DNA of 64,000 nucleotides from a virus (taxonomy: Duplodnaviria; Caudoviricetes): IMG/VR virus record IMGVR_UViG_3300025087_000034. The stretch is one strand, 5' to 3'. Under the pieces are notes generated by a model that saw only the letters and a list, made by a program, of their open reading frames with translations, did not search any database and was not told the DNA's origin. The first letter of the stretch is position 1, and every line of letters begins with the position of its first letter. This document shows, one piece after another, positions 792-60,371 of the stretch. Position numbers and translations under genes: made by a program.

Positions 792-2090
792 GTGCCTAAT
801 TTTTCTGACATAACTATAAGGCAATACTCTCCGGGGTCCGTTGGTGGGTACGTGGCAGATAGAGATTTTAATTGGAGTAGCGAGGGAGACTGTAGGGATT
901 CCTTATTGGGGGTTTCCACAGAGATAGGGGTGCAATTTTATTACGCTTATCAACATCCCCGCCCAATGTTTGTTAGTTTGCCCTATTCTGTGTCTGAAGA
1001 CTGGTCTGATAGTCCGTCGAATGCCCCATTTTTATCTGATTTAGAAAGGTACTCGTATGGCAGGTTTGGGCCTAATAGGTATGGGAAGTTAGATAATTAT
1101 CGGGGGGCGAGTGTAAGACAAAATTACTTTGGTATGGCGTCAGAATCGTTAATTACTGAATTAATAACTAGTAAAGATACTGTAATATATGATATTGATA
1201 CGGGTTTAACGAATGAAACCTTAGTTTATGAAACCGAGGTTCCGTTTAATTACACAACCTTAAACCAACGTAACTTATTATTAAATGCTTCCCCAGCACC
1301 GTTTTCTTATAAGAATCCTGTTGATACGGATGTTTATATACGAATGGGTAATTATGTTTATACTCTTAGTTCAGGAACTATCACGCTTTCTTTGGACGGG
1401 GAAAGTAAAACAGGATTAGAAATAACCCCTTATTTTGGTGGGTTAGGCGGTTATGACGTTACTTGGAGTAATGACCAGGAGTTTGGGTATAATTCAAGAG
1501 TAGCGGTTCATTGGACGGTTTATGACTCTTACGTTCCACCAAATAAAATAGATTTCGATTATTGGTTTATGACCGTACAGGACTATTTAGGTCCTAGGTT
1601 TTTTTCTTTTTCTCCGCAGGATGGGGATATTGGTGTAGGTGTTGATACCTGCATTTCCTTTGTTGTTAGAGATTATGAATTAGGTATAAATATAAGTAGT
1701 CTTGAACTATATGTAAATAATGTTTTTATACCTATTAGTAGTATGAGTATAAGTGAAACAAGTTCTGGTGATGGTTATAGTATTTCTTTTTGCCCGCCGG
1801 AAGAATTTTTATATGGTGACACTATACCAGTATCAATATATGTAGAGGATAATTCAGAAGAAAAGAACTACTCTTTTTATGTGTATTCTTTTACTACAGA
1901 GGAAAGCTTGGCTCCTAATGTAATATCGCAGGATCCAAGGCCTTGTATTGGGTATGTTCCTGTTGACTATGATGTTGAGGTTGACGTAGTTGACGGAGGT
2001 GGCGGTATAGACGGTGAATCAATTGTACTAATAATAGATAGCAAGCCTGCTGTATTTAGAAAAGAGCCTATAATATATAGAGAGGATTAG
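792..2090 (+). CDS. Putative virion protein with Ig-like repeats
   Basis: 432 aa with GTG start. The C-terminal half has the pattern PQDGDIGVGVDTCISFVVRDYELGINISSLELYVNN...YSISFCP..EFLYGDTIPVSIYVED, which recurs in 7847..10360. Confidence 0.55.
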   Translation: MPNFSDITIRQYSPGSVGGYVADRDFNWSSEGDCRDSLLGVSTEIGVQFYYAYQHPRPMFVSLPYSVSEDWSDSPSNAPFLSDLERYSYGRFGPNRYGKLDNYRGASVRQNYFGMASESLITELITSKDTVIYDIDTGLTNETLVYETEVPFNYTTLNQRNLLLNASPAPFSYKNPVDTDVYIRMGNYVYTLSSGTITLSLDGESKTGLEITPYFGGLGGYDVTWSNDQEFGYNSRVAVHWTVYDSYVPPNKIDFDYWFMTVQDYLGPRFFSFSPQDGDIGVGVDTCISFVVRDYELGINISSLELYVNNVFIPISSMSISETSSGDGYSISFCPPEEFLYGDTIPVSIYVEDNSEEKNYSFYVYSFTTEESLAPNVISQDPRPCIGYVPVDYDVEVDVVDGGGGIDGESIVLIIDSKPAVFRKEPIIYRED

Positions 2091-2094
2091 TTGA

Positions 2095-5000
2095 ATGCCT
2101 AATACAGTACCTGGAAAACTTACTAAGCAAGGACCCATAGCAACACTAGAGGGTACAGTGGGTTTTACCGATGGTGACAAATTTATGTTTAACGGCAGCC
2201 AGTTTGTGCATTTTGTTTCTCAGGCTCCTACTGCTATAGAGGCTTCTGCTAATAAAGTACAAATACTTTATGATGGTCAGGTATATTCTAAGTTGTCATA
2301 TTCTAATTTTAAAAACAGCTCAAATGTTTTTAGGTTTTTAGATGGTGAGCCTATGTATACAGGAGTTTATATTGGTACTCCTGGTGCTTATGACCATGTT
2401 ATTATAGGGTATTCTTCTCCTATCACAACCAATCAAATTAGGTTTTGGTCTGCGAACTATATACCGAAGGATTTTATACGTGTAGATTATAGCCATGACG
2501 GGGATTATTTTTTTAATGTTCCAACAAGTGTGGGTGATGTTTCCTTTGAATTTGATGACTCTATAAGACTTTATTCTACAGAGGCTTCTCCTAGGGGCCA
2601 GTATGTTTATACTGTAGAGTTGAACGCAGATTACACAGCTAGTTATTGGCGTATTAGGTCTTTTATATTCGCTACCAATACAGCTAGGGTAGCAGACGTA
2701 AATGGTAAGACGGTTACACTGACCACGGTGTCAGGGCTCCCTGCTAGTTCTGATTTATATGAAGACGGTGGTTTATATTATTATGTTGGTAGTATAGGGA
2801 CTTCTTTGCAGACTAAAACTTTCCGGTCTTCTTCTTTACCGCCGATTAGTGGAGATGATAGGTTTATTACTTATAGTGCTACAAATATTACGTTGGATCC
2901 CAATTGTACTACTTTAACATTGAATAATGTTAGACTGGACAATTGTGTGGGAACTATTCGCAGAGGTTCTACCATTAAGGGCACGTGTTCTTTGATGTCT
3001 TTTCCTACTGAATATTACATAGCTGAATTAGCAGAGGATGTGGTTGTTTCTTCTAATCCAGATTATGTGGATCTTGTTTTTGATATCACCTATTCTTCTG
3101 TCCCTGGTTATGTTGTTGGGTGTCCAAATGTTCGCCTTAAATCTATAATAGGTAATTCTGGCAATATAGGATTTACGTTCTCTTACAGTGCTGAGTTGGG
3201 GTTGGTTTTATCTTATAAACCTATGTCTTCTGTCTTGTATGGTTCTTTAGGTGCTTCTTCTTTAGTGGGAATGAACATAGGGAGTTTTGGTGCTTCTGAT
3301 GATCTTGAAGCAGGAAGTTCCTTTGTTTATAGTTATGATTGTGAACTGACCCAGGTTCAGATAGTAAGTGGAGACAATAGCCAGCTTAGGTACTGGGAGT
3401 CTGATGGAAGTAAGTCAGTTACAAATTTATTGGAAGTAGATAATGTTTATGATCTTTCCTACGATGTTTCTGATGAGGTTTATTATGCTATAAGATTTAA
3501 TGCCTTAGGTGGGTTTGGTAGTCCTAGTTTGACCGATGATTTTTCTGGAAATTTTGGTAGCTCTTTTGATGCTTCTAAATGGGGGGAGCTTGGGACCGGT
3601 TTCTATAGGGACCCTGTAGCGGGGTGTGCCGTTTTTAATACTTCTTCTGGGGTTGTTAGTGCGGGGGGTCTTATAAGCACGGCTTATATAACGGGTAATT
3701 TTGATGCTTCTTTATATAACGAAGTAGCGACCTTGTCGGGTTCCGGTTTTTATGGTTTTTCGTTAATAGATAAAGATAGTAATAATATGTATGGCGGTGT
3801 ATTTTTAGCTAGTAATTGGGGGGCAGGGTTCAGTGGGTCTGTTGTCGGTGTGGGTGTTAGTGCGTTAGTAAACGTTGTTAGTTCCTATGTTAATTTTAGT
3901 AGTCTTAGCATTGATCCCTATGTGTTAGTAGAAGGAGACCATAAACATACTTTAGAGTATAGCTCTTCCTTGTGGTATTATACTAGGGAAAGCTTAACTC
4001 CGTCAGGTGTTTTATGGGATGTTTCTGATGTTAATGTTGGCTCTGGTCCAGGTGTGTTGTTGGACGGCATGAGCGTGTCCTTGGAAACGTCAGCTATGCC
4101 TCCGGATGGTAGCCACATTAGTTTTATTACGCATAAGAGCACGGCCTCTGGGTTGAGTAGTTCTACGGTTATGTTGTCTAGTAGCTATGACAGTCTATTG
4201 GGGCAGATTATTTTTAGTTTTGATGATGGGTTCGTAAGCTCTGTTCTGGTTTCAGAGATATACGGGAAGAATTTTAAAATAGGTATTTTTGGAAGTAATA
4301 GCAACTTTACTACTGTTAGTTCTACTCTATTTGAGTCTTCTGGGAGTGTTATATGGACCATACCTTGTTTTGAGGTTGTTGCTATTAATGCTGAGGGTAG
4401 TGTTACAGATGTTCCTGATGTTACTTCTGGGCGAGGTTTAGCAATATCTGCCTTGGATCTTGTGCAAGACCCTGTGGCCTCTTTTGGTGACTATTATAAT
4501 AAGGTGTCCATAGCAACAAACGGCTTAAGAAAAGACTCTGGTGGGGCATTGTTTCTAAGGATTAATTCAGATATTTATAGGTATGAGAAATCAGATCTCC
4601 CAATAATATTACCAGAGGAAGGGTCTACAGCTTCTGTTGTTGTCTCTGGTACTTTGCCATCTATCGAACTACGACATTTTAGTTATGACGACTATGTTAA
4701 TGGTGGTCTTAGTTATGGGTATGAGGATAGTCGTGGTGTTTTTATCACGACTGTTTCTTCCTCGTCTTTATTGGAAACTGGGTATGAGGCGGAGTTAGAT
4801 TTATTGGCCTGCTCTGTTCCTTTAGCTAGGGATCCTGTAGACTATTCTGTCTTATATACACTGGTAGGGAATAGTGTATATGTATTTAATTCAGATGATA
4901 CGTCTGTTGCTTTTTGTAATGTGATATCTAGTGAACCTGTGTTGCCGGCCAATTCAAACTATAGCTCGCTTATTACAGCGCAGGTTACAAACTTGTATGG

Positions 5001-5172: not shown

Positions 5173-5183
5173 GGGTGTAATAT

Positions 5184-7838: not shown

Positions 7839-7846
7839 GAGTTTAA

Positions 7847-10360
7847 ATGCGCTGGAAAGAGGGTGGAATAAACTATGCCTCTGGTAGTTTTAGTATTCCC
7901 GGGAGTAGCGTTCGGGTGTGTGCCTATGATAATGGCACACAGGTGTGTGATAAAGGACACAAAATAACAACACCAGGACAGTGTTATTCTCAAAGCATAG
8001 GAACTATAATAAGTACAGACCCTACGTTTCAGCCTACTTACCCTATATGTTTGGTAGATTATATGGGTCTTATTAATAGTTCGGGTTTTATATTTAATAG
8101 ACAGTATGGTATTTCTAGCACTTTTAATATAAGTACTTTAGATGTTGTTTTGTCTGCCTATAGCTTGGTGTTGTCTTCATTATATACAGAGAAAGAAGAG
8201 TATTTAGTTGTAAAAAGTATATATAAGTTGTTTGATTCTTTAGGTATTAGGGTTTGGTCAGATAGTATAACAGACAGTTATTCAGCCTATTTATCTGATT
8301 ATTATATGGTTGGTACTTTTAAGCTTTTATTGTTGAATAGTGGCTACATTCTCAGAGCTATAAATGCCTTTTCTGAGTTGTACCAGTATGATGTGTATGG
8401 TAGTGTTTCCTTACTTATGCCCTATTATTTTTTCCCTAAGATTACTAGGCAGGTAAATTTAGTAGTAATAGATGATATTACTGGTAGTTTTTCTGAGGTT
8501 GAGTCTTTATTTAAGTTGAGTGTAGAAAATTCTTCCGGCGGGGAAAATGAAAATCCTACAGATATATGTGTAGGAGACTTAACAAAACCATCTCTAGAAA
8601 ACATTCTACCTATACCAGGTTCTGTACTAAGACCAAATACTTCCTCTATATCATTTACTATAATAGATGCTATAGGGGGTGTTGATAGGTCTTCATTATA
8701 CATAACTATAAGTGGAAGTATAACAGCCCAAGCAGGTGGTAGTTCTATTATTGAGGCGGGTGTTATTCAAACTCCCCTGTATGCTTTTTTGGACGGGGAT
8801 GAGAATAGTTATGAATTTACCTATAACCCACCCTTTTTGTGGGCTGATAATGAAACAGTTTCTATAGCAGCTCATGGTTCTGATAAACTGCCTTTAGACG
8901 CAGAAGATGAAGAATTTATATGTGGTGGTCTTTCTACGAATAGCTTTGATGAGGCTTGGTCTTTTAATGTTGCTGGTATAAAGGAACTTACTTGTTCTAT
9001 AGTTGGGTTGGCGGATTCAGAACCTCCGTACATTGATTCTATATATCCTGTTCCTTTTTATGCTTATGCAAGATATGACGATGATATAACTTTTAACATA
9101 AAAGATGACCATGCCGGAGTTGATTTAAGTACTCTTTATGTCTATATAAATAATATTCCTGTTATTAGTGCTGGTGTGATTAATTCTGGTAATGTTTTTT
9201 TGGCCGGCGAAAAAAATTCATATCAATTTACATGGTCTAATACAGTAGGATTTATATATGGTGATAGAGTAGAAGTACATATAGTAGTTTCAGACTTATA
9301 TGCTGTTTTACCAAATATGTTAGACACAACTTATTATTTTGATGTAGTTGATGATTCTTCTCTGCAGTTCTTAAATTTTTTGCCGGCGGTAGGAATAACA
9401 CCTGACCTAGAAAATGTAAATATTGAAATAGATATTATAGATTCTCTTTACAATATTGATCAAAACAACTTATATATAAGTATGAACCAAGAAGTTGTAG
9501 ATAGTACCAAGACAAATATACAAGGTAATAGAAATTTAACTACTACATATTCTGGTTTAACAGCAATATCAGGTACTTGGATACATGATGCAGAAGTACT
9601 AGGCAGTATAATTACAAATACAACAGTTTCTGGTTCTTATATTATAGGAGGTAGTATAGAATATGGAAGTTCCATTTCTGGTTTTATGGGCTCTTTTCCT
9701 GCTCCTTTCGACTTAACTCCTTCCGGTATGATTATTTCCGCTGATTTATATGAAGGAATTGTAGTTTCGGGGACACTGGAAACTGTTCTTGTTAGTGGCA
9801 CTAACTGGGATGGCAAATATGAGAATTCAACTATTACTGATGTTAGTTTATCTGGGTTTTATTGTAGCAGCGTTTCTTCTTATAATACGATAATAAGTGG
9901 TACTATTGGCTACCATTTAGAGTATCACCCAGTAAATGACTTTGCTTATGATAGACCAATAGATATACTTATACATGCAGAAAATTTAAATTCCATTTCA
10001 CCGGTTGTTCGTGAAAGGATTTATAGGTTGTTTTATGGTTATAATGTAAAGACATTTAATACTAAGTTCAATAATAATGATAGAATAGTTGTTTATCTAG
10101 AAGCTTTAAATACATCAAATTTTTCGGCGGCGCTAAAAAATTCATATTACTTCAACACGAAAGAAAAAAGTATTTCTAATATATATGCTTCTATAAATAT
10201 AGTAGAACCATGGTTAAATATAACAGCCGATATACAACCACAAGCACCCGTACACAGGTACGGAGAAACAATAACTGTAGTACTATACGCACAAGACGTA
10301 CAAGGTAATGTATTGGGGCCGTATACCTTTTCATATACGATAGAAGATGCCCCAGAATAA
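7847..10360 (+). CDS. Putative virion protein with three Ig-like repeats
   Basis: 837 aa. Repeated units ISFTIIDAIGGVDRSSLYITI, ITFNIKDDHAGVDLSTLYVYIN and IEIDIIDSLYNIDQNNLYISMN. Confidence 0.55.
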   Translation: MRWKEGGINYASGSFSIPGSSVRVCAYDNGTQVCDKGHKITTPGQCYSQSIGTIISTDPTFQPTYPICLVDYMGLINSSGFIFNRQYGISSTFNISTLDVVLSAYSLVLSSLYTEKEEYLVVKSIYKLFDSLGIRVWSDSITDSYSAYLSDYYMVGTFKLLLLNSGYILRAINAFSELYQYDVYGSVSLLMPYYFFPKITRQVNLVVIDDITGSFSEVESLFKLSVENSSGGENENPTDICVGDLTKPSLENILPIPGSVLRPNTSSISFTIIDAIGGVDRSSLYITISGSITAQAGGSSIIEAGVIQTPLYAFLDGDENSYEFTYNPPFLWADNETVSIAAHGSDKLPLDAEDEEFICGGLSTNSFDEAWSFNVAGIKELTCSIVGLADSEPPYIDSIYPVPFYAYARYDDDITFNIKDDHAGVDLSTLYVYINNIPVISAGVINSGNVFLAGEKNSYQFTWSNTVGFIYGDRVEVHIVVSDLYAVLPNMLDTTYYFDVVDDSSLQFLNFLPAVGITPDLENVNIEIDIIDSLYNIDQNNLYISMNQEVVDSTKTNIQGNRNLTTTYSGLTAISGTWIHDAEVLGSIITNTTVSGSYIIGGSIEYGSSISGFMGSFPAPFDLTPSGMIISADLYEGIVVSGTLETVLVSGTNWDGKYENSTITDVSLSGFYCSSVSSYNTIISGTIGYHLEYHPVNDFAYDRPIDILIHAENLNSISPVVRERIYRLFYGYNVKTFNTKFNNNDRIVVYLEALNTSNFSAALKNSYYFNTKEKSISNIYASINIVEPWLNITADIQPQAPVHRYGETITVVLYAQDVQGNVLGPYTFSYTIEDAPE

Positions 10361-10378
10361 TAAGAGGAGGATGAATAT

Positions 10379-11988: not shown

Positions 11989-12094
11989 AATTATATTATG
12001 TTTCTTTTTTGATTTACAAATCATATGCTTCTTATTATATATAGGGTAAGAGTCGCTTGGGCTCATGACATTTATAGATAATAGGAGGCACAAG

Positions 12095-13231
12095 ATGTCA
12101 AATCTATGTGAGTGTGGCTGTGGAACAGAGGTACCAGGTGGAAGGTTTGTACATGGGCACAACCGTAGGGGTAAGGCTAGTTTTACTTCTAACGGGCGCT
12201 GGTCTATGAAATATGATTGTTGTAGAGAGTGTGGTACCACAGAGTTAAAACATACTAGAGACGGGTATTGTCGCAATTGTTATAGAAGAAAGGCTCGTTC
12301 TGGAGAGATAGTTATAAAGAGGGACTTAACAGGGGGTAAGTGGTCTAAAAAATATGATTGCTGTACTGAGTGTGGTACTACGGAGGTTAGATACAAGTCT
12401 AAGGGACGTTGTGAGCATTGTGTTGCTAAAAAACAGGTGAGGGATAGGGGGAAACGGAATCGTAATTTTGGAGGGTGGTCTTGGTATTATGATAGGTGTG
12501 TTAAATGTGGTACTAGTGAGATTCCACATGGCTCGAGGGGTTTGTGTATGCAATGTTATTCAGAATTGGGGCGTGAGGATAAAAAGGGGGACTTGGCCCG
12601 TTGTCCAGTTTGTGGGGTTGCCACTGTTAGGTTGGAGCAGCATTTGGCCATGAAGTCAAAGAGAAGTCTCGAACATAGGGGCCTATATAATAAACTTTAT
12701 GATAGTGCTGTTGAGGCTTTTAGTAGTAGTCAAACGTCGAGGGAGGTTGCACTTTCCTTTGGTGTTAGTAAGAGAAGAATATTGGATATATGGCACGAAA
12801 ATTTTACAAAAGAAGAGGTTGTTGCTAGGGGAGAGAAAATACGCATAAGTAAGATTTCGGGAGAAAACCATTATCTTTTTGGTACTCTTATTAGCTTTCC
12901 TTATTCTAGTATTATAAGGTTTGAGGATATTAAGGGGAAAGTTGTTTTTTTGCGGTCTTCTTGGGAAGAAAAATATGCTCGGTATTTAGATTCCCAGAGG
13001 GTTGAGTGGGAGTATGAAACATACAAATTTAAATATTATGACTCTGAGGGTTCCCCTCATTACTATTTTCCTGATTTTTATTTGCCAGGTACAGGGGAGT
13101 TTGTTGAGGTTAAGGGTTATATGACAGATAAAGATCAGTACAAGATGGACGAGTGCAAACGTATACACGGTATTAATATAAGGCTTATGCAAAAAGAAGA
13201 TTTTAGAGTTATAGGCATAGTGGTATATTAG
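12095..13231 (+). CDS. Putative homing-type endonuclease: multiple Cys/His zinc modules plus C-terminal PD-(D/E)XK (TnsA-N-like) nuclease
   Basis: ATG at 12095 follows AGGAGG. Contains CECGCG...RFVHGH, three WSxxYDxCxxCGTxE...GxCxxC repeats, CPVCG..LEQH, an HTH-like segment, and LRSSWEEKYARYLD...EWEYE...YFPDFYLP...FVEVKG. Confidence 0.75.
   Translation: MSNLCECGCGTEVPGGRFVHGHNRRGKASFTSNGRWSMKYDCCRECGTTELKHTRDGYCRNCYRRKARSGEIVIKRDLTGGKWSKKYDCCTECGTTEVRYKSKGRCEHCVAKKQVRDRGKRNRNFGGWSWYYDRCVKCGTSEIPHGSRGLCMQCYSELGREDKKGDLARCPVCGVATVRLEQHLAMKSKRSLEHRGLYNKLYDSAVEAFSSSQTSREVALSFGVSKRRILDIWHENFTKEEVVARGEKIRISKISGENHYLFGTLISFPYSSIIRFEDIKGKVVFLRSSWEEKYARYLDSQRVEWEYETYKFKYYDSEGSPHYYFPDFYLPGTGEFVEVKGYMTDKDQYKMDECKRIHGINIRLMQKEDFRVIGIVVY
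12197..12550 (+). repeat. Three in-frame Cys-rich repeats with 141- and 135-nt spacing
   Basis: TGGTCT at 12200, 12341 and 12476 begins WSMKYDCCRECGTTE, WSKKYDCCTECGTTE and WSWYYDRCVKCGTSE. Confidence 0.85.
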
Positions 13232-45155: not shown

Positions 45156-45731
45156 ATGTCTAAACAGTCAACAATTTTTTCGGGCGCCGAAAAAAATATT
45201 ACTGAACAAGATTGTATTGACATATTAAAAGAAAAAAACTATATAATAATAAAGCTAGACGATTTAGACACAACACAGGTTAAAACAGCTAAGGAGCTAG
45301 TTTCTTTTTTCTATGCTACTTTATCTTTTTATAATAGGTCAAGATTATTACATTATGGGAAGACAACAAAAAAAGATTTAAAGTTAGCTTCATCTTTTAT
45401 AAAGATAAGACAAGAAGAAGCCGGTCTTAGTAAGGGTAGGGCTGTACAAGAATGTGCCATGATAGTAAGGTGTGTAATAGCAAATGAACCAAAGTTTTCT
45501 CTTTCTGAGCCGTTACATAATATGGAATGTTTTGGACAGGAAAATATGCGGTGGGTTACTGATAAAGCAATAAGCATAATAAACGGGGAGAATAAGAAGA
45601 TAGAAGAGGAAAAATATAATAAGTATATAGAAGATCTTTATGGTGCGCAAGAAAAAATAGCCATTGAAAATATAGATAATAAACATGTAGAAAATCTTAA
45701 GGATATTTTAGGAGATTTAGAAAATGGGTAG
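45156..45731 (+). CDS. Hypothetical protein
   Basis: 191 aa helical ORF, coupled to recA. Confidence 0.6.
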   Translation: MSKQSTIFSGAEKNITEQDCIDILKEKNYIIIKLDDLDTTQVKTAKELVSFFYATLSFYNRSRLLHYGKTTKKDLKLASSFIKIRQEEAGLSKGRAVQECAMIVRCVIANEPKFSLSEPLHNMECFGQENMRWVTDKAISIINGENKKIEEEKYNKYIEDLYGAQEKIAIENIDNKHVENLKDILGDLENG

Positions 45732-47577: not shown

Positions 47578-48988
47578 TATTTCAGTAAATGTGCCTTCAG
47601 CCGATTGGTATTCAAAGCCAGCGGCTGAGAGAGCTTTGCTATCTTTATGCTTACAAAATTATTCAACTTTTATTGATGTTTCCTCAAAACTTTTTCATGA
47701 GGATTTTCTGGACCCAGGAAACCGTGCTTTATTTATAACTATGTTATCTGTGCATTCTTTGGGTACAGAAGAGTTCGATTTGCCTACTGTTATTTCTTTT
47801 GCTGAGAATATGGGCGTTTTAGAAGATATAGGGGGCTATAAATATATAGACGCTCTTTTTAGGTCAGAGATTAGTCAGTCAAATTTAGAGGTGTATGTAA
47901 AACAAGTTCTAGATGCCTCTTTGTTATTTAAGCTGGAGAGGGTCTTAAGATTGAATGTTGAGTCTGTAAAAACTAGTGTTTCTGAAAATAAGACGGCTTC
48001 TGAGGTTATGTCGTCTGTGGAAAACCAGATTTTGAATCTTTCTTTGGATACATTAAAGGTTGATGATGGACAAGATTTGGTAGCTGGTCTGGAGGAAAGG
48101 TTAAAAGAATTTGAATCAAACCCAGCCGCTGTTAGAGGTATAAGGTGTGGTTTCGAAGTACTGGACCGCACTATAAACGGGTTTAAGCCAGGGACTTTAT
48201 CAATTTTGGCCGCGCGGCCAAAAACAGGAAAAAGTACATTGTTATTAAATTGGGGTATACATATTTGTTTACATGAAAAACTTCCTGTATTATATTTAGA
48301 TACAGAAATGAGTAAAGAAGAACAACAGACAAGAGCTTTATCAATCATATCAGGTGTTCCTGAACGTGTAATACTTAATGGGCTTTACATTAATGACGAG
48401 AATGTTATGAAGTCTGTATACTATGGTGTAGAAATAATGAATAAAATGAAATTTATCCATAAATACACACCAGGGTATAGAATAGAAGAACTTAAGGGCT
48501 TAATACGGAAGTATAAAGCTAAAAATAATATAGGTGTATTTATATATGATTACATCAAAATGACAGATATGGAAGATAAGTTTAACGAAACCCAAACTCT
48601 TGGATATATAACAAGTGGTTTGAAGGACACGGCGGGTATATTGGGTATAGCTGGAATATCTGCGGTGCAATTAAACCGTGGGGCTGAGGGGAAATCATTG
48701 GTTGGTTCCGGGGACATTGCCGATTCGGATAAAATTTTGAGATATTGTTCTACATTGATGGCTATGAGTAGAAAAACAAGGGCAGAAATAGATAAAGAGG
48801 GGGGTAGAAGTGGGACACATCGTTTACAAATTCTTGACAGCAGAGGCAGCAGAAGCTTATATAGTGGTATAGACTTGGAAGTTAATTTTCCCACATTGAC
48901 AATAAAAGAAGCCAGAGCACAGTCTTCAGCTGCATTTTTGGAACAAAAACAACTTGAGGAAGAAGTTACAAAATTAGGAGGAAGATAG
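47558..48988 (+). CDS. dnaB: Replicative DNA helicase, DnaB family
   Basis: N-terminal AERALLS, Walker A LAARPKTGKS, YLDTEM, YDYI, SAVQLNR, IADSD. Confidence 0.95.
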   Translation: MRKLEDSISVNVPSADWYSKPAAERALLSLCLQNYSTFIDVSSKLFHEDFLDPGNRALFITMLSVHSLGTEEFDLPTVISFAENMGVLEDIGGYKYIDALFRSEISQSNLEVYVKQVLDASLLFKLERVLRLNVESVKTSVSENKTASEVMSSVENQILNLSLDTLKVDDGQDLVAGLEERLKEFESNPAAVRGIRCGFEVLDRTINGFKPGTLSILAARPKTGKSTLLLNWGIHICLHEKLPVLYLDTEMSKEEQQTRALSIISGVPERVILNGLYINDENVMKSVYYGVEIMNKMKFIHKYTPGYRIEELKGLIRKYKAKNNIGVFIYDYIKMTDMEDKFNETQTLGYITSGLKDTAGILGIAGISAVQLNRGAEGKSLVGSGDIADSDKILRYCSTLMAMSRKTRAEIDKEGGRSGTHRLQILDSRGSRSLYSGIDLEVNFPTLTIKEARAQSSAAFLEQKQLEEEVTKLGGR

Positions 48989-49399: not shown

Positions 49400-49411
49400 T
49401 CTCTTATTTTC

Positions 49412-49425
49412 GCGGCGAAAGCCGC
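49412..49425 (+). other. GC hairpin with GAAA tetraloop just upstream of the primase RBS
   Basis: GCGGC-GAAA-GCCGC, preceded by TTTTC and not followed by a U-tract. Confidence 0.55.
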
Positions 49426-49437
49426 ACAAGAGGTAAA

Positions 49438-50466: not shown

Positions 50467-50468
50467 TT

Positions 50469-50804: not shown

Positions 50805-50814
50805 GAGACTCGAG

Positions 50815-51150: not shown

Positions 51151-51316
51151 TTTTGATGTTTCAGTAAGTCATCTTACTGCTTTTTATGATTCTGACGTTA
51201 CGTGTCCTTTTTGTGACAGCACCTATATTTCTTTGTTCGATAATGGGGGGACAGTTGAGTACATTTGCCCCGAGTGTGGAAATGTTTGGGTTGTTCTTGG
51301 TGCTGGTGAGGAATAA
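51128..51316 (+). CDS. Small zinc-ribbon protein
   Basis: CPFCDS...YICPECGNVW. Confidence 0.65.
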   Translation: MLTKQTIDFDVSVSHLTAFYDSDVTCPFCDSTYISLFDNGGTVEYICPECGNVWVVLGAGEE

Positions 51317-51322
51317 TAGCTC

Positions 51323-52159: not shown

Positions 52160-52992
52160 CTTTTTATGATGTGTTAGGCGCGTCTAAAGAGGCCTCAGAA
52201 GATGAGATAAAAAAAGCCTATAGAAAGAAAGCTAAGGAAACCCATCCAGATATAAATAAGGATGACCCAGAAGCTGAAGAGAAGTTTAAGAAGGTTTCTG
52301 AGGCTTATGGGGTTTTAGGAGACTCTGAAAAACGACAACAGTATGATTTTTCATTAGAAAACCCTGGTTTTAATGGGGGACCTGGATTTAATTCCTGGAC
52401 TAGTACTAATTTTGATGATATTTTTGGTGCACATTTTGGATTTGGTGCTAGTGGTCCCAGACAAAGACCAAAACCAAATCCTAAGGTAGTAGCTCGTGGG
52501 AAGGATGTAAGAATTAAGTATGACACTACTCTTTACTCAGCAATATTTGGTGGAGAGTTTTCTGGTAGGTTAAAATTTGACTCTGGATGTCCAAATTGTG
52601 CGGGGTATGGCTATCTTAAGTATGATACCCCGTGCAGTACTTGTGGGGGCTCAGGCCAGCAGTTTATATCCCATGGTATGCTTCGTATGAGTCAGCCTTG
52701 CTCTTCTTGTAGAGGCCTTGGGTTGGCTCCTAGTGAACAGTGTCCTGAGTGTTCTGGTTCTGGTAAGTGTAGTAATGAGTTTGAATACTTTGTTACTATT
52801 CCAAGAGGGTTTGTATATTCCAATAATGAAAATGGTGGTGTTATTATAGTAGAAGGTAAGGGGGCACCAGGAATTAACGGCGGGGAAAAAGGAAATTTAA
52901 TAATAATAACAAATATTTTAACCCCAAAAATAAATTTAGAACAGATAACAGAAGAAGAAAAGGAAATACTCAAAAAGTATATAGATAATTAA
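52156..52992 (+). CDS. dnaJ: DnaJ (Hsp40) co-chaperone with shortened C-terminal domain
   Basis: J-domain with HPD, G/F-rich linker and four CxxCxGxG motifs. Confidence 0.93.
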
Positions 52993-52996
52993 AAAA

Positions 52997-53473
52997 ATGT
53001 CAAGAATATTAGGATTAGATGTATCTTCATCCAGTACCGGTTGGGCACTTACAATAAATAATAGATTTTATTTAAAAGAAGAATGTTATTATGGTATAAT
53101 AAGTCCAGAAAAGAATTTAACTCTTGCCGAAAAACTAGAATTTTTTAGGGTTAAATTAATAGAAATTTTAGATAAAACTAAACCAGATATAGTAATAATA
53201 GAAGACGTGTTTTTACAGCGTAATGTTAGTACTCTTAAACTATTATCTAGATTTTCTGGTGTGGCTATAGAAGCAGTAAAATCTAATTCAAAAATAGAAC
53301 CACAACTTCAAACAGTAAAAAAAATACGTTCCAAAGTAGGAACACAAGACAAAAAATCAACATATACATTTGTTGTAGAAAGGTTCAAGCTTCCGTGGAA
53401 AAAAGAAGACTTTAATAAGCGTAATGATATAACTGACGCACTGGCTCTGTGCTTGTTTGTAACTACAAAATAG
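52997..53473 (+). CDS. ruvC: RuvC-type Holliday junction resolvase
   Basis: ILGLDVSSSSTGWA, VIIEDVF, NDITDALAL. Confidence 0.85.
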   Translation: MSRILGLDVSSSSTGWALTINNRFYLKEECYYGIISPEKNLTLAEKLEFFRVKLIEILDKTKPDIVIIEDVFLQRNVSTLKLLSRFSGVAIEAVKSNSKIEPQLQTVKKIRSKVGTQDKKSTYTFVVERFKLPWKKEDFNKRNDITDALALCLFVTTK

Positions 53474-53484
53474 GAGTTTAAAAA

Positions 53485-54663: not shown

Positions 54664-54665
54664 AA

Positions 54666-54860
54666 ATGGTTGAAAAGAAAGAAAAAAAATATCAAATATA
54701 TAAAGAAGGTGTGTTTGTCGGACTTCAACTTCTAGATGGGACAAAGGTTTTTGGTATAATTGATACTTTTGACAATTACTTCTTATATATAGACGATGGA
54801 ATAACTATCATTGATGTACCACGGGACATAGTGAGAAGAATTTTTGCGGTTGTAAAGTAA
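54666..54860 (+). CDS. Hfq/Sm-like small protein
   Basis: VGLQLLDGTKVFGIIDTFDNYFLYI matches the Sm1 pattern (cf. Hfq [25 protein letters not shown]). An Sm2-like IDVPRDIVRRI follows. Confidence 0.65.
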   Translation: MVEKKEKKYQIYKEGVFVGLQLLDGTKVFGIIDTFDNYFLYIDDGITIIDVPRDIVRRIFAVVK

Positions 54861-55606
54861 TGATTACAAAATCTGGTATATACTGTATTTGTAATTTAGT
54901 TAATGGAAAAATATACATAGGACAGACGGCTGATTTTAAGCTAAGGTGGAGAAGCCATATTAAAAGGTTTAATAGAGGTTCTAGGAGTGCAAACCCACAC
55001 CTTCTTAGCGCGTGGAGAAAGTATGGCCCAGAAGCTTTTGTTTTTGAGGTTATAGAATATGTTCCTAAAGATAAAGAACTCCTTAAAGAACGGGAACAGT
55101 ATTGGATGGACTATTTGAATGTGACCGACTCGGAGGTGGGATATAATATATCTCCCACGTCCGGGTCATCTTTGGGAGTTAAGTATACAGAGGAACAAAA
55201 GCAGAAAATGTCTGGTGAAAACAGCGTTGGGTATCAACATGCTAAGTGCTGGGAATACAATGGAAAATCCCTGCCTTTGTCTGTTTGGGCGAAAGAGTAC
55301 AATATGAGCCAAACAACCCTTGCCTCCCGAGTAAAAGAGATGGGCTGGCCGCTTGAAAGGGCCTTAGCCACGACGGTAAAAAGTGACATGTTTGGTGAAA
55401 ATAACAATATGTTTGGTCACAAAGGTGAAAAAAGTCCTGGTTATAAACATGCTAAGCGCTATGACTATGATGGAAAATTACAGACTCTGTCCGATTGGGC
55501 TAAAGAGTATGGTATAAATCAAACTACATTGAGTTCTAGGATAAAGAAATTAGGGATGTCTATTGAAAGAGCCCTAACAACCCCTGTAAAGTCTAGAAAG
55601 AAATAA
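54860..55606 (+). CDS. Free-standing GIY-YIG homing endonuclease with two C-terminal HTH-like repeats
   Basis: [18 protein letters not shown]...EREQYWMD...GYNI, then two copies of YxGKxxxLSxWAKEYxxxQTTLxSRxKxxGxxxERAL. Confidence 0.9.
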   Translation: MITKSGIYCICNLVNGKIYIGQTADFKLRWRSHIKRFNRGSRSANPHLLSAWRKYGPEAFVFEVIEYVPKDKELLKEREQYWMDYLNVTDSEVGYNISPTSGSSLGVKYTEEQKQKMSGENSVGYQHAKCWEYNGKSLPLSVWAKEYNMSQTTLASRVKEMGWPLERALATTVKSDMFGENNNMFGHKGEKSPGYKHAKRYDYDGKLQTLSDWAKEYGINQTTLSSRIKKLGMSIERALTTPVKSRKK

Positions 55607-55656
55607 TCTTTTGGTTGTTGTTTTTTGTATACAATATTTTCATAAAAAGGAGATTT

Positions 55657-56946
55657 ATGGTGGAACAAAAGAAAGATAAAATAAAGATGCTAGTATACGC
55701 TGACTCTGTGACCGCATCTACAGGTTTTGGGGTCGTTATGAAAAATATATTGTTGCCTTTGCATAACACAGGCAAGTATGAAATAACCATGCTTGGCATA
55801 AATTACTGGGGAACCCCACACCAGGCCCCGTTTGAAATCTGGCCTGTGGGTGTGGAGTCCATGTTTAGTGGGGACAAGGATCCGTATGGACGGTTGTTTG
55901 TCCAAAGAAAAATAGCAGAATCTGAATTTGATATTTTATTTATGTTGCAAGATTCATTTATCCTTGAGTTTGTAAAGGATTTTCTTCCAAAGTTAAGGCA
56001 GAAGGGAAAAAAGTTTACTTCCGTTATATATTTTCCTATAGATGGAATCCCTAAGAAAAGTTGGATTGAAGCTATGAATGTAGCTGACATTCCCGTCACG
56101 TATACTGAATTTGCGAAAAATGAGTGTATAAAGATTATTCCGTCTATGGAGAAAAGACTTAGAATAATTCCTCATGGTGCTAATATGGCAGATTTTTATC
56201 CATTATCTTATAGGGAAAACTATGAGTTTAAGAAGGCTTATTATAGACATTTGGCTGACCGATTTATAGTTTTAAACGTAAACCGCAATCAGCAGAGAAA
56301 AGACATATTTCGCACAATGCTTGCGTTTAGAGAATTTCATAGGAAGTATCCTGATACACTTTTGAATCTGCACCTTGCGGTAAAGGATCAGGGTGGTGAT
56401 ATTCTGGCAGTAGCGGATTCTCTGGGTTTAGTGCCAAATGTCGATTTTATTTTTCCGTATAATTTTTCTCCTTCTACTGGTTTTCCTGTAGACGTGCTAA
56501 ATAGGATTTATAATTCTGCTGACGTAGTGATTAGCACATCTAAAGGAGAGGGCTGGGGGTTGGCTCAGGTAGAAGCGATGGCCTGCAAAACTTTAGTAAT
56601 TTCCCCAAATAATACGGCTTGTACGGAAATAGTAGGTGAAGACAGGGGATTATTAGTAAAAAGTGGTCATGATATTGACCATCTTGAAATTATGATGTAT
56701 GACAACGAAGTTCTTCGTCCTGTGGTTAATGTCCAAGACTTAGTAGATAAGTTAGAATTAGCTTATAATGATGAAGTATTAAGAATGAAGCTAGCAGAGA
56801 ATGGATATAACTGGGTTAGAAACACACTTGTGTGGGAAAATAATATAGTTCCCTTGTGGGAGGTCATATTTGAAGAGGCTATGGAGATGAAGAATAAGGG
56901 GCATGTTGTTGAAAGTGATGGTTTCGGTGAGGTAGAGGAGGTTTAG
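55657..56946 (+). CDS. Glycosyltransferase, GT4 (GT-B) family
   Basis: ATG at 55657 after AGGAG. TGFG N-terminus, LNVNRNQQRK and ISTSKGEGWGLAQVEAMAC. Confidence 0.9.
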   Translation: MVEQKKDKIKMLVYADSVTASTGFGVVMKNILLPLHNTGKYEITMLGINYWGTPHQAPFEIWPVGVESMFSGDKDPYGRLFVQRKIAESEFDILFMLQDSFILEFVKDFLPKLRQKGKKFTSVIYFPIDGIPKKSWIEAMNVADIPVTYTEFAKNECIKIIPSMEKRLRIIPHGANMADFYPLSYRENYEFKKAYYRHLADRFIVLNVNRNQQRKDIFRTMLAFREFHRKYPDTLLNLHLAVKDQGGDILAVADSLGLVPNVDFIFPYNFSPSTGFPVDVLNRIYNSADVVISTSKGEGWGLAQVEAMACKTLVISPNNTACTEIVGEDRGLLVKSGHDIDHLEIMMYDNEVLRPVVNVQDLVDKLELAYNDEVLRMKLAENGYNWVRNTLVWENNIVPLWEVIFEEAMEMKNKGHVVESDGFGEVEEV

Positions 56947-56948
56947 TT

Positions 56949-58070
56949 ATGCGAGGTATAAAGGTCATAGGCCCATATAATGATGCTTCTGGTTATGCCC
57001 AGGCATTTAGAGACAACGTTTTGTCTTTATATAAACTAGGTTTTGATATTACTATACAACCTAGGAATTTTGAACCAAACCCCCCACCGGTTTCAAATAA
57101 AGAACACGCAGCTATATTGGATAAACTTGTTGGAAGAAATATTAAGTATGATATAACCTTCCAACAGCTCACCCCAGACTTGTGGCGTGACCATGTGGAG
57201 CCTGACAAGTATAATATAGGTTTTATGGCTTGGGAGACTTCTTTGCTCCCGCCAAAATTTGTTCATTCTTGTTCTTCTGTACAAGAAATTTGGGTTCCCA
57301 GTGATTATAATGTAAGTGTACTAAGGTCTTGTGGGGTTGAAGTTCCAATAACAAAAATACCACATAGTATAGACCCAAATTTGTTTAGTTCAATAGACTG
57401 TGGAGAGTATAGCCTAAAAGGTTTGTCAAATAACACATATAAGTTTTATAGTATTTTTCAATGGATCGAACGAAAAAATCCTATGGGTCTTGTACGTTCA
57501 TATTTTAATGCTTTTGATGACAGCGATGATGTTGTTCTTATATTAAAGACGTATCGTACTGGTATGGGACGTGATAAAGATTTTATTAGAGAAAAGATAG
57601 TGGAAATCAAAAGGGATATGAACATAGGGGCATATCCTAGGGTAGTGCTTATTGGGGACATGCTTAGTAAAAATCAGGTGTTAGGATTACATAAGTATTG
57701 TGATAGTTATGTATGTTTGCACCGGGGTGAGGGGTTCGGCCTTCCTCTGTTCGAGGCCGGGCTAGTCGGTAACCCTGTAATCGGTACTGGTTATGGTGGG
57801 AACACAGAGTTCATGAAAGAAGACAACAGCTATTTAGTAGAGTATCAAATGACGTATGTTTCTGGTATGAGTTCATTTAATCCTTGGTACTTAGGAAGCG
57901 GACAATGGGCAGAACCTAATTTGATTGACGCAAGTGAGAAAATGAATTATGTATTTAATAATAGAATAGAAGCTAGAGAGACAGGAAGGAGACTTCAAGA
58001 TTATATAGCTAGTAATTTTTCTACAGAAGCAGTTTCTAAGTTAATGTTTGATAGGTTATCAAAACTATAA
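56949..58070 (+). CDS. Glycosyltransferase, GT4 (GT-B) family
   Basis: SGYAQA, WVPSDYN, WIERKNP and HRGEGFGLPLFEAGLVGNPVIGT. Confidence 0.9.
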   Translation: MRGIKVIGPYNDASGYAQAFRDNVLSLYKLGFDITIQPRNFEPNPPPVSNKEHAAILDKLVGRNIKYDITFQQLTPDLWRDHVEPDKYNIGFMAWETSLLPPKFVHSCSSVQEIWVPSDYNVSVLRSCGVEVPITKIPHSIDPNLFSSIDCGEYSLKGLSNNTYKFYSIFQWIERKNPMGLVRSYFNAFDDSDDVVLILKTYRTGMGRDKDFIREKIVEIKRDMNIGAYPRVVLIGDMLSKNQVLGLHKYCDSYVCLHRGEGFGLPLFEAGLVGNPVIGTGYGGNTEFMKEDNSYLVEYQMTYVSGMSSFNPWYLGSGQWAEPNLIDASEKMNYVFNNRIEARETGRRLQDYIASNFSTEAVSKLMFDRLSKL

Positions 58071-58086
58071 CTTTTTGGGGGTTTTT

Positions 58087-58920
58087 ATGTTGCTGCGCGA
58101 AAAAATTATCTCATTGATTTACAGGGAAATTCTTGGTAGGGATGTAGACGATATTGGTTTGGGTATATATATGAGGTCTAGCGTTCCTATAGAGGTTGTA
58201 TATAGTGAGGTTTATAATTCCGATGAAGCAATGGAGTATAGGGATAGGATGGAGGAAGAGAGGTTTTTAAAGCAGGCGAATATTAAGTTGCCATTAACCT
58301 TAGCAATGTTTGTTAAGGACGTAGAAGACAGTGTAGAAATGGCTATAAGAAGTGTTTTACCTATAGTTAGTGAGGTTGTTATTACAGATACTGGTTCCTC
58401 TGATAGAACTATAGAGGTGTGTAAGGACCTGGGGGCTCGTGTCTATAGTGTGGGGTTTTCTGACTTTGGTAGCATAAGAACGGTGTCTGGTCATTTAAGT
58501 AGGCAGCCCTGGGTTCTTGGTTTGGACGCCGACGAGGTTGTTCTTTCTGAAGACCTTCCAAAATTTAAGGATTTAATAGAGAATAGTAATGTAGATGCCT
58601 GGGGTTTGCCAAGAAAACGATGGGCCGATTTGGAAATGCTAGTACAGGTAGAGCCGGAGGCATACCCGGATTTTCAATATAGGCTATTTCGTAATGATTT
58701 AAATATTATTTATGTTAGACGAATACACGAAATAATTAAAGGAACTGATAAAAAAGTGGAGGCGCTTGACGGTCCTTGTATACAGCACTTTCAAGATGTT
58801 TTTAAGTTCGGAGAAAAATTAAAATCAAGAAATTTACTTTATAAGAATTTGTATGATAAAGATATTTGTGATGGTGTGGGGCACGAGGGTTTAGCCGTAC
58901 AACCCATTGACGAGGTGTGA
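58087..58920 (+). CDS. Glycosyltransferase, GT2 family (SunS/flagellin-GT-like), with N-terminal DUF4214-like helical domain
   Basis: AMFVKD...VVITDTGSSDRT...DFGSIR...WVLGLDADE. N-terminal LIYREILGRDVDDIGL...VYNSDE. Confidence 0.85.
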   Translation: MLLREKIISLIYREILGRDVDDIGLGIYMRSSVPIEVVYSEVYNSDEAMEYRDRMEEERFLKQANIKLPLTLAMFVKDVEDSVEMAIRSVLPIVSEVVITDTGSSDRTIEVCKDLGARVYSVGFSDFGSIRTVSGHLSRQPWVLGLDADEVVLSEDLPKFKDLIENSNVDAWGLPRKRWADLEMLVQVEPEAYPDFQYRLFRNDLNIIYVRRIHEIIKGTDKKVEALDGPCIQHFQDVFKFGEKLKSRNLLYKNLYDKDICDGVGHEGLAVQPIDEV

Positions 58921-59729
58921 TTTTGTATATTAGTGTTCCAATAATTCTACGTAACATCGTAAGGCTTAATTACCCTGTGGAAATGGTAGTTGGTAGTGTT
59001 GCGGGCTTGGCTAATGAGGTTGTTTTGTGCGTCGACCCTTCCTCGGAGGACTCGACTGTTAAGTTGTGTGAGGAGATGTCTTTAAGGTCGAAGCTCGGTG
59101 GAATAAAGACAGATATACGTGTAGTATATAGTAAATGGGATTTAAAAAACATAACTGATACAGGATATGAATTTGCTAAACAAACAAATATAGCAATAGA
59201 TTACTGTATTGGGGACTGGGTGCTTCTTTTACAGGCCGATGAAGCAATTCACGAACAAGATTTTGATAAGATACTTGACGCAATTGATTATGCAAACGAT
59301 AATAATATAGATGGGTATGAAATGACACGTCTGTATTTTTATGGTAGTATGGATGTCATACGAGACGATTGGACAGTTCCTATTATAAGATTATTTAAGA
59401 AGGGGTCTAGAAAATCGTGTGGGGACGCTATGAATACCTTAGGTAAGGGAAGGGTTGAAAGACTTAATGTTCCAATATATCATTATTCACGTATAGGGGA
59501 TCCTGAAATTATATCTAAACGTATATTATCTTTGGATAAATTTTTTCACCGCGCGGAAAAATTAAAGGACGAAAAAGAACTTAAACCATACTCATTTGAC
59601 ACATATAACTTTGATTGTCAACATAAAGACAATATAGACATAGGAAGAAAAAAAGTAGAACAATCATTTAGTACATTTACAGGCACACACCCAAAAATAT
59701 TCGTTGGGTATACTGGGGAGGGTTTTTAG
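58917..59729 (+). CDS. Glycosyltransferase, GT2 family
   Basis: NEVVLCVD..SEDST...AKQTNIAIDYCIGDWVLLLQADEAIHE...IYHY. Confidence 0.85.
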   Translation: MILYISVPIILRNIVRLNYPVEMVVGSVAGLANEVVLCVDPSSEDSTVKLCEEMSLRSKLGGIKTDIRVVYSKWDLKNITDTGYEFAKQTNIAIDYCIGDWVLLLQADEAIHEQDFDKILDAIDYANDNNIDGYEMTRLYFYGSMDVIRDDWTVPIIRLFKKGSRKSCGDAMNTLGKGRVERLNVPIYHYSRIGDPEIISKRILSLDKFFHRAEKLKDEKELKPYSFDTYNFDCQHKDNIDIGRKKVEQSFSTFTGTHPKIFVGYTGEGF

Positions 59730-59732
59730 TTC

Positions 59733-60371
59733 ATGATATTAGAAATGTCTTCCTGGGCCAAACTAAATATAAAAGAACCTGCCCCTTTATATGAAGTTCC
59801 AGGAATTAATTCTATAGAACCTATTGATGTATATAATTTTCGTTATTCTCGTCCGTATACTGAATTAAGTAAACCAGAACTAGAGGACCCACACAGGCAG
59901 TATTTGGATGTTTTGTGTAATTTGGACAGGGGAAGCTCTCTTTTAATTTTTGGCTCTGGTCACAGTTTTAATATGAACATCTTTTATGATTATGGGAGGT
60001 TTTCTAGGCTTGTAGCTGTAGATTTTTCCGCGGCGGCAAAAATAGGTCTTTACAAAGAAATAGAATTTTACGATAATAATATACTAGAAGGTGACTTACC
60101 TGTTGTTTGTGACTATGTTTTTTCAGCTCATACTATAGAGCATTTTTATAAGAAAGAATTATTTGATATTGTTTTACCTAGATTGTTTAAGGCTGCTAGA
60201 AGGGGTGTAGTGATATTAGTACCGTACGGTACTAATTGGGCCGGGGAACCTTACCATAAGTGTCAGTTTTATGAAAATGATGAATTTGCATCGTTGTTTG
60301 ATAAATACAGGATTGTAAGAAAGGGTTCAGAAATTATATTTTTTAAAGGGGAAACTGACCATGGATTTTAG
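59733..60371 (+). CDS. Class I SAM-dependent methyltransferase-like protein
   Basis: LLIFGSGHS, LVAVDFS, DYVFSAHTIEH, VILVP. Confidence 0.7.
   Translation: MILEMSSWAKLNIKEPAPLYEVPGINSIEPIDVYNFRYSRPYTELSKPELEDPHRQYLDVLCNLDRGSSLLIFGSGHSFNMNIFYDYGRFSRLVAVDFSAAAKIGLYKEIEFYDNNILEGDLPVVCDYVFSAHTIEHFYKKELFDIVLPRLFKAARRGVVILVPYGTNWAGEPYHKCQFYENDEFASLFDKYRIVRKGSEIIFFKGETDHGF

Follow-up and report, generated by a model that had tools for sequence, protein, structure and literature searches.

A dispersed T-tract, CpG-rich core, A-tract element embedded in the genes of a huge uncultivated phage

Among dispersed binding sites, the Noc-binding site (NBS), TATTTCCCGGGAAATA, is scattered along the Bacillus subtilis chromosome, and the operator sites (OB) of KorB act on promoters over distances that range from 45 bp to above 1 kb. 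The OB word is TTTAGCSGCTAAA, and RK2 carries about 12 copies on its 60 kb. Sites recognized by E2F (TTTSGCGCSAAA) and MogR (TTTT-N5-AAAA) follow the same kind of design. Phages contain dispersed words of another sort: the nick consensus of T5, R/GCGCRGG, is a CpG word in an AT-rich phage, and phage tf has the nick word TACT/RTGMC at 14 sites in 46 kb. Here we describe an element of IMG/VR record IMGVR_UViG_3300025087_000034 (Duplodnaviria; Caudoviricetes) in which a T-tract and an A-tract bracket a CpG-rich block of G and C. The whole stretch that was analysed, 64,000 nucleotides, is referred to below as the window.

The element resembles NBS and OB in its T-rich arm, CpG-containing GC core, A-rich arm and two-fold symmetry, and also in that its copies are dispersed over the replicon, with many inside genes or away from promoters; the density of OB on RK2 is similar. 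NBS and OB are each a fixed word of 13-16 bp, recognized by a cognate CTPase of the ParB family, whereas the element described here has a variable core and longer homopolymer T and A tracts. It falls outside the ParB sites on core invariance, with 16 different cores of 6-12 nt, and no Pfam hit to a ParB-family gene was obtained in the 101 kb of the phage that were examined.

The element is real and statistically robust. The strict motif (T4-S6-12-A4, where S is G or C) occurs five times in the window, compared to 0.07 expected from 1000 within-gene synonymous-codon shuffles, 0.03 from 500 dinucleotide-preserving shuffles, and 0.06 from a Markov model of codon pairs whose training set was the window. 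Enrichment was thus 50-100 fold across the three nulls, and none of the shuffles attained the observed count. A first-pass annotation, which had noticed the element and suggested counting it against shuffles of these kinds, used a looser pattern that is also in excess (9 in the window vs. 1.47 in codon shuffles and 0.28 in dinucleotide shuffles). When overlapping contig pieces (L102, L100, the window, L098 and L103) were stitched into 101.5 kb of the same phage, a looser pattern was found at 13 sites, with 0.26 expected. Flanks and core occur together more often than chance predicts: of 175 runs of at least six G or C (S-runs) in the window, 13 have T4 upstream, 9 have A4 downstream, and 5 have both, compared to 0.67 expected (Fisher p = 1e-4), and 8 of the 9 S-runs with three CpGs are flanked by T and/or A tracts. 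Pairs of T and A runs spaced 6-12 nt apart fall into two classes, a majority with ordinary spacers and a separate mode with spacers of at least 80% GC; the GC-rich class accounts for 15 of 67 T..A pairs but only 1-5 pairs in each of the other three polarities.

The reverse order is absent from the window in the strict form A4-S-T4 (0.03-0.06 expected across the three nulls) and occurs twice in the 101.5 kb, where 0.28 is expected. An intrinsic terminator shares with the element a GC-rich centre and homopolymer A/T flanks, but requires a U-tract 3' of its stem-loop; here both strands read T-tract, core, A-tract, as was recognized at the outset, so that a hairpin never precedes a U-tract, and most of the cores cannot form a hairpin alone. 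The terminator reading was therefore rejected.

Mutational, repair or recombination drive, as has been proposed for uptake sequences, or a bias in codon context might in principle produce such a pattern as a non-adaptive by-product, which we regard as improbable. The motif has accumulated in one lineage, and GC-only words cluster generally in this genome: + strand S-runs of at least 8 nt number 46 where synonymous shuffles predict 21, and CGGCGGG occurs 7 times compared to 0.54 expected. The codon-pair model nevertheless fails by a wide margin, the GC-rich T..A spacers form a mode of their own, core composition is unlike that of other S-runs, and non-conservative residue changes have been tolerated where sites were created. 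A simple codon-pair or GC-clustering artefact was rejected on the same Markov result, general GC clustering leaving the flanks unexplained. Most copies of CGGCGGG spell xxC GGC GGG across Gly-Gly, and the window also contains a G10 run at 62403.

Sixteen sites were compared to define the anatomy of the element. Most T-tracts measure 4-8 nt; the cores span 6-12 nt and the A-tracts 3-7 nt. The ten sites in the window have a full length of 19-22 nt, with a standard deviation (SD) of 1.1 that is below those of core length (1.6) and of the flank sum (1.9); the outer boundaries are held more tightly than core length, which fits a fixed footprint. TTTT-N12-AAAA fits 9 of 11 sites, in a register that was fitted after the sites had been inspected. 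All 16 cores differ from one another. They contain 75 G and 63 C, with CpG or GpC making up 61% of steps, whereas other S-runs on the same G-rich coding strand contain 671 G and 360 C, with CpG at 15% of steps (over the whole window the + strand has 15098 G vs. 9467 C and 21363 T vs. 18072 A). Because G and C are nearly equal between a T-tract and an A-tract, the element reads alike on both strands. Interruptions of the arms are mirrored, as in TTCTT/AAGAA at 1787 and TTTTTTCT/AGAAAAAA in the relative L002. No conserved sequence was found beyond about 24 bp, and the consensus, AAATTTTTTCGGCGGGCGAAAAAATT, has no conserved positions besides the T and A tracts. A fixed core word of the Chi or uptake type was rejected, since no single k-mer recurs in every core, the two strands are equivalent in the element, and CGGCGGG is present in a subset only. 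Conservation extends to polarity, composition, strand symmetry and length, and not to sequence or core pairing.

Codon usage at the sites indicates that the element was written at the level of DNA. The window is AT-rich and CpG-poor, as first described, with 38% GC and a CpG observed/expected ratio of 0.62, and the CpG codons that had been singled out as unusual are indeed minor members of their families (TCG 5%, CGG 5%, CGC 4%, GCG 12%, CCG 12%; GGC is also at 12%) next to the preferred TCT (42%), GCT (51%), CCT (46%) and AGG (42%). Among approximately 21,000 codons, only 8 peptide positions could spell the strict motif by any synonymous choice, and at 5 of these it is present, by way of rare CpG codons; a sixth and a seventh of the eight approach it, 33035 being one A short and 57240 close. 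Motif-compatible peptides are themselves more frequent than in residue shuffles (8 vs. 3.2; 4 of 300 shuffles reached 8).

The clearest synonymous case is the Walker A region of DnaB. Two relatives with 56% amino acid identity in DnaB share its conserved peptide, I-[LV]-A-A-R-P-K, yet only in this phage lineage is it spelled TTG GCC GCG CGG CCA AAA, within a perfect 20-bp palindrome; the relatives have GTA GCA GCC CGA CCA or GTG GCC GCT AGG CCC. Non-synonymous changes are seen in an 837-aa tail-fibre-like protein aligned with 13 homologues (41-48% identity), where there is no indel at 9195, 10120 or 9376. Homologues have I[ST]I[TS]GD at 9195 where this lineage has VFLAGE, and FTNELNQG at 10120 where it has FSAALKNS. 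At 9376-9389, NF[YV]PEVGIT has become NFLPAVGIT, with the Y/V to L and E to A changes supplying the T-tract and GC block of T6-GCCGGCGG, which remains a half-site because the conserved VGIT downstream blocks an A-tract. By eye, sites 9195 and 10120 seem to occupy paralogous positions of one repeated domain and are therefore not fully independent; BLASTP found no internal repeat. A mobile insert, such as a Rickettsia palindromic element (RPE), a miniature inverted-repeat transposable element (MITE)-like sequence or a GC cluster, was ruled out by the lack of an indel at these three positions or at DnaB Walker A.

Rare-codon spelling, the DnaB palindrome and residue replacement without indels imply that selection or drive acts on the nucleic acid, and it is well supported that this force on DNA overrode codon usage and some residues, in agreement with the earlier suggestion that DNA rather than protein is the target. 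The element is neither terminator nor insert nor fixed word; it was imposed on the nucleic acid of this lineage through substitutions, some synonymous and others not. The converse, that a peptide motif F-[SL]-[AG]-[AG]-x-K (such as a peptide for cleavage or recognition) is primary and the DNA pattern secondary, is very improbable. Every site does encode a similar peptide, because T5 and A5 always include an in-frame TTT and AAA, and compatible peptides are mildly enriched. A peptide motif would, however, use the common codons GCT, GGT and TCT; moreover, the core starts at codon position 2 in five sites, 3 in four and 1 in one, two copies are intergenic, and the relatives have the same Walker A peptide without the DNA motif. 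Codon evidence effectively refutes this explanation.

Of the possible readers of the element, we tentatively favour a protein that binds duplex DNA as a two-fold symmetric site recognized by shape and composition, for marking or organising the genome; no alternative seems as probable to us, and this one is itself far from assured. The signal would be about 21 bp of duplex DNA, a T-tract of 5-8 nt and an A-tract of 5-7 nt bracketing a G/C-only block of 8-10 bp rich in CpG and GpC. A dimeric, two-fold symmetric protein, encoded by the phage or its host, would contact the outer T and A tracts at a roughly fixed distance, and the core would serve as a stiff GC-rich spacer and not as a specific sequence, an indirect (shape) readout. 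Copies every 6-8 kb could then act as loading, anchoring, silencing or self-marking sites, in the manner of Noc at NBS or KorB at OB. Balanced G and C despite one-way transcription on a G-rich coding strand points to a duplex-DNA reader with two-fold symmetry; with every gene on the same strand, a signal acting purely in the transcript could do without such balance. A fixed outer length around a free GC-only core points to contacts with the T and A tracts and to indirect readout. Exclusive T-to-A polarity, co-occurrence of the T and A flanks, mirrored interruptions of the arms, and intergenic copies upstream of gene starts are also consistent with a protein reader, although its existence on duplex DNA, its symmetry and its organising role are things that we infer.

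Several observations weigh against a dimer-binding site. Among Pfam hits in the 101 kb examined, out of a genome of at least 258 kb, neither ParB nor KorB nor another evident family of sequence-specific DNA-binding proteins is represented. Cores are much less uniform in sequence and length (6-12 nt) than those of any ParB-, Noc- or KorB-type site that has been characterised, the register TTTT-N12-AAAA was chosen post hoc, and the motif is nearly restricted to one lineage, without a known lineage-specific candidate protein. There is no excess of sigma-70-like promoters downstream of the sites (19% vs. 10% within 60 nt, n = 16). A reader other than a protein, or a non-adaptive drive, may be responsible instead. 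The first-pass proposal of a genome-wide cis-element bound by a protein thus survives as the best reading, but the cores are too variable for a fixed word of the parS or Chi type, and the 101 kb yielded no reader protein. A bolder version, to which we give somewhat less credence, is that the element is an undescribed punctuation of phage genomes: a degenerate, strand-symmetric mark of about 21 bp, defined by shape and composition, that residue-replacing positive selection has driven into genes, even over DnaB Walker A, and that would be the loading or anchoring site of an organising, silencing or self-recognition system.

Next in order among the readings come two that we consider unlikely, and about equally so. 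In the first, the element acts as a single-strand hairpin, either in mRNA or in DNA that is single-stranded while replicating or recombining, with the T and A arms paired, the GC block topping the stem-loop, and a structure-specific factor reading it. The arms are complementary by construction and their interruptions co-vary; five sites fold well, including 45175, 48204 and position 99071 of the merged contig (-7.5 to -11 kcal/mol) and 33035 (-8.0 kcal/mol with 3-nt flanks), and 45175 and 48204 have perfect inverted repeats of 9-10 bp. Phage N4 provides a precedent, in that its small GC-rich hairpins with inverted-repeat flanks extrude and act in vivo. The promoters used by the virion RNA polymerase of N4 are similarly about 20 nt long, with a GC-rich centre and short inverted-repeat flanks, and they act through structure. 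They are, on the other hand, only three in number, intergenic and at one genome end, and they form a stable hairpin of 5-7 bp in which the bases of stem and loop are conserved, while the sites described here are mostly intragenic, without selection for pairing in the core; a virion RNA polymerase was not identified.

Core pairing argues against the hairpin, whether of the N4 or the repetitive extragenic palindromic (REP)-like type. The summed minimum free energy of the sites, -59.0, does not stand out from composition-matched shuffled cores (-52.4 +/- 7.9), and 17% of the shuffled sets attained it, so that stem complementarity is not above composition; about half of the sites fold at only 0 to -2.3 kcal/mol. 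G.T mismatches in the arms are not favoured over A.C (12 vs. 7) beyond composition, and hence a plus-strand RNA signature is absent. Extrusion of a cruciform (S-type extrusion) is disfavoured by a GC-rich centre, the least extrudable design, and ribosomes melt intragenic hairpins. The cruciform that had been offered earlier as an option is not supported, given the core pairing and the GC-rich centre.

A variant of the hairpin reading, to which we assign low probability, would make the element an RNA site for a phage Hfq-fold protein, whose proximal face would take the U-tract and whose distal face the A-tract. The phage does encode such a protein, in a 64-aa open reading frame (ORF) at 54666-54860 (+), between a PD-(D/E)XK nuclease gene and a GIY-YIG gene; the gene keeps this position throughout the phage family, whereas the motif is specific to one lineage, and its product is for that reason only a low-probability reader. 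Assignment of the ORF to the Hfq/Sm fold comes from a weak Pfam match to Hfq (20.9 bits), Hfq being 23 of 27 Protein Data Bank (PDB) sequence hits, and an AlphaFold model (predicted local distance difference test, 84) with a helix and five strands, for which the top 50 Foldseek matches are all Hfq (template modelling scores 0.71-0.82). Reading of the alignment suggested that the proximal-face aromatics are retained, while the YKHAI motif and rim arginines are not.

The second unlikely reading is that a site-specific nuclease, nickase or DNA-modifying enzyme recognizes the CpG-rich cores, as at the nicks of T5, tf and phiKMV-like phages or in a self-mark made by methylation or glycosylation. 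Localised nick sites are, like the element, short phage signals that are dispersed, mostly intragenic, lineage-specific and of unknown function. The phage also encodes several HNH (RRXRR-HNH), GIY-YIG and T7-endonuclease-I-like nucleases, and methyltransferase- and glycosyltransferase-like genes. Known nick sites are nonetheless fixed, asymmetric words on one strand, whereas the element, as studied here in assembled contigs, is strand-symmetric and has variable cores; a nickase acting on a symmetric site would yield double-strand breaks. A comparison with Chi, uptake signal sequences (USS) and DNA uptake sequences (DUS) leads to a similar contrast. They too show a genome-wide excess, are tolerated in genes through the bending of codons and residues, and are lineage-specific, but they are fixed, asymmetric and oriented where the element is degenerate and strand-symmetric, and uptake or RecBCD logic has no obvious application to a phage that looks virulent.

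Less probable still, and on a par with the non-adaptive by-product considered above, is a mechanical or kinetic signal that needs no dedicated protein, a stable GC block between easily opened or rigid A-tracts. Such a block might pause or phase a translocating machine (by RNA polymerase backtracking, or at a packaging or ejection motor, a helicase or branch migration), or confine melted or silenced AT-rich DNA. This would fit the conservation of composition, polarity and overall length without that of sequence or pairing, and a spacing of roughly 5-12 kb. Neither strict T-to-A polarity nor balanced G and C is obviously needed, however, and the spacing is irregular; we know of no precedent. The peptide motif ranks last among the alternatives.

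Overall density is approximately one site per 6-8 kb, with gaps of 0.2 to 19.7 kb. The longest site-free stretch, 19.7 kb, spans 60.4-79.7 kb in window coordinates, in the sugar-biosynthesis block. Fourteen of the 16 sites are intragenic, in structural, replication and glycosyltransferase genes. One intergenic copy, L102:7852, follows a gene end and is 50-75 nt upstream of a gene start, and the other, L004:18704, is 144 nt upstream of a gene, within a strain-specific insert. An Rfam search of the window matched no family.

Related phages contain far fewer copies. Counted with a looser pattern, there are 7 sites in the 64 kb of the window (0.11 per kb), 3 in 84 kb of relatives with more than 50% DnaB identity (0.036 per kb), and 7, one of them in reverse order, in 640 kb of more distant family members (0.011 per kb). 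The conservation at the DNA level that might have been expected of related phages thus fails at most positions, and the motif is largely lineage-specific. The single site kept in position is 59541, which has a counterpart in L002 (56% amino acid identity in DnaB); a neighbouring gene of L002 has the near-identical T6-CT-GGCGCC-GAG-A7 (ATTTTTTCTGGCGCCGAGAAAAAAATT). Two distant relatives, mutually 76% identical, keep an element of their own, TCTTTTAGGGCGCAGAAAAAGAGAGA, invariant over 26 nt, which ties the second-longest run in 7.9 kb and is only suggestive of a conserved element. The element class seems to be old in the family and much expanded in this lineage.

All ten full sites that had been proposed are present with the sequences and coordinates originally reported; they are given here without strand. 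TTCTTTTT-GCCCGCCGG-AAGAATTT (1784-1808, the site at 1787) lies in ORF 792-2090, where a C interrupting the T-tract is matched by a G interrupting the A-tract. The tail-fibre-like ORF 7847-10360 contains T7-GGCCGGCG-A7 (9195-9216, peptide VFLAGEKN) and T5-CGGCGGCGCT-A6 (10120-10140, peptide NFSAALKN). T5-CGCGCGACAC-A5 (20892-20911) is in ORF 19765-24795, T8-CCGGCC-A6 (26810-26829) in ORF 24795-29927, which encodes a giant Kelch-repeat protein, and T6-GGCGGCGCCG-AAA(GAGA) (33035-33053) in ORF 32142-33272. T6-CGGGCGCCG-A7 (45175-45196), 19 nt inside ORF 45156-45731 (peptide IFSGAEKN), is a perfect 9-bp inverted repeat and is identical in sequence in strain L004. The DnaB palindrome, TTTTGGCCGCGCGGCCAAAA(A) (48204-48224), covers the Walker A peptide ILAARPKTGKS. 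T6-CACCGCGCGG-A5 (59541-59561) is in a glycosyltransferase-like ORF, 58917-59729, at which L002 has T6-CACCCCGCCG-A5, and T5-CCGCGGCGGC-A5 (60023-60042) is in ORF 59733-60371.

The weaker site TTCTT-CCGGCGGGG-AAAA (8530-8547) is almost the same 18-mer as the site at 1787, on the opposite strand. Besides 9376, half-sites are found as CGGCGGGC-TAAAAA (14395-14408), TTT-CGGCGGGGG-AAGGAAAAA (30848-30870) and CGGCGGGG-AAAAA (52878-52890). Every half-site named in the first-pass annotation exists, but those at 46345 and 58092 have only a 12-mer in common, at chance level. One further match of the scan, 49407-49420, was removed from the family, as it is a GCGGC-GAAA-GCCGC hairpin masking the primase ribosome-binding site. 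The full intergenic sequence, TCTCTTATTTTC-GCGGC-GAAA-GCCGC-ACAAGAGG (49401-49437), forms a GNRA-tetraloop hairpin. The DnaG primase gene has its ATG at 49438, and its ribosome-binding site, AAGAGG, is covered by the outer stem of the hairpin, CTCTT/AAGAG. The hairpin is likely a translational operator, outside the T/A-tract family.

The window belongs to a phage with no close described relative in the databases searched. Its DnaB was found on groundwater and sediment metagenome contigs of up to 258 kb, indicating a huge, uncultivated phage, and five independent assemblies are 99.9-100% identical across the shared region, too alike for polymorphism within the population to be informative about the sites. 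A megablast search with the window matched no GenBank phage, and the closest GenBank phage DnaB is 32% identical. Scanning IMG/VR for relatives of the window DnaB gave none, and a search there with the DnaB palindrome gave zero matches; the idealised TTTTTSGGCGCCSAAAAA matched four IMG/VR contigs, of which the three examined each have one unrelated copy. Only a single relative at 74% identity was among the relatives found. P0032, a DnaB relative in the phage family, carries an intein splicing domain (PF14890) that the window DnaB does not have.

All plausible ORFs of at least 100 aa in the window are on the + strand. Giant tail-fibre-like proteins, with domains of the Big_1, Kelch and F5/8-C types, are encoded in the left half, and in the right half a replication and recombination module of sliding clamp, RecA, DnaB, DnaG primase, SSB, DnaJ, RuvC and PD-(D/E)XK nuclease, as well as two GIY-YIG homing endonucleases, glycosyltransferases, TnpB and a DegT aminotransferase. 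A 388-aa protein at 12065-13231 (+) ends in a T7-endonuclease-I-like (Holliday-junction resolvase) domain, its N-terminal part of about 280 aa being unassigned; together with RuvC (52997-53473), it gives the phage two junction resolvases. Adjoining the replication genes, from 55615 to 63864 and on to about 16 kb past the window (L098, L103), is a large nucleotide-sugar and glycosylation block with four glycosyltransferases, a DegT aminotransferase, a B12/radical-SAM enzyme, methyltransferases, a PglD-like acetyltransferase and two epimerase/dehydratases. The TnpB gene (61053-62186, +; OrfB_IS605 and Cas12f1-like TNB domains) is situated between the glycosyltransferases and the sugar-aminotransferase gene, with no TnpA nearby and no omega-RNA match in Rfam.

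Comparison with strain L004 (L004:17450-21431 vs. window 55000-55585) showed identity until about 55.0 kb. Divergence starts within the GIY-YIG/HTH_psq endonuclease gene, and other genes replace the glycosyltransferase block, a strain-level cassette swap that starts at a homing-endonuclease gene. Repeated, selfish-looking genes are dispersed in the genome: several paralogous ORFs with faint CapR, DUF723 and DUF4379 matches (L102:8554-14936 and L103:14593-15477), and two RRXRR-HNH endonuclease paralogues that are about 80% identical to each other (L098:12980-14398 and L103:19210-20613). Two blocks are invariant between L038 and L044 (76% identity), a 53-nt block with the inverted repeat AGCGGGCGC ... 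GCGCCTGCT (L038:813-865) and a terminator-like block of 26 nt (L038:1386-1411); both probably serve that distant lineage as regulatory elements, in RNA or DNA.

Dispersed cis-elements embedded in coding sequence, among them Chi, uptake sequences, the FtsK-orienting polar sequences (KOPS), the sites of Noc, SlmA and MatP, and stoperators, have each revealed a genome-scale machine. To our knowledge very few are described in phages, and we know of none in huge uncultivated phages. The signal reported here overrides codon usage and some residues and is unusual in form, in that composition and polarity are conserved and sequence is not. If a reader protein exists, a 24-bp probe would be a direct handle on it, and its study would offer insight into the organisation, marking or regulation of a genome of at least 258 kb. 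The element also calls for caution in annotation and in codon-based studies of the evolution of phage genes, where clusters of rare codons and odd residue substitutions may be features of the DNA.

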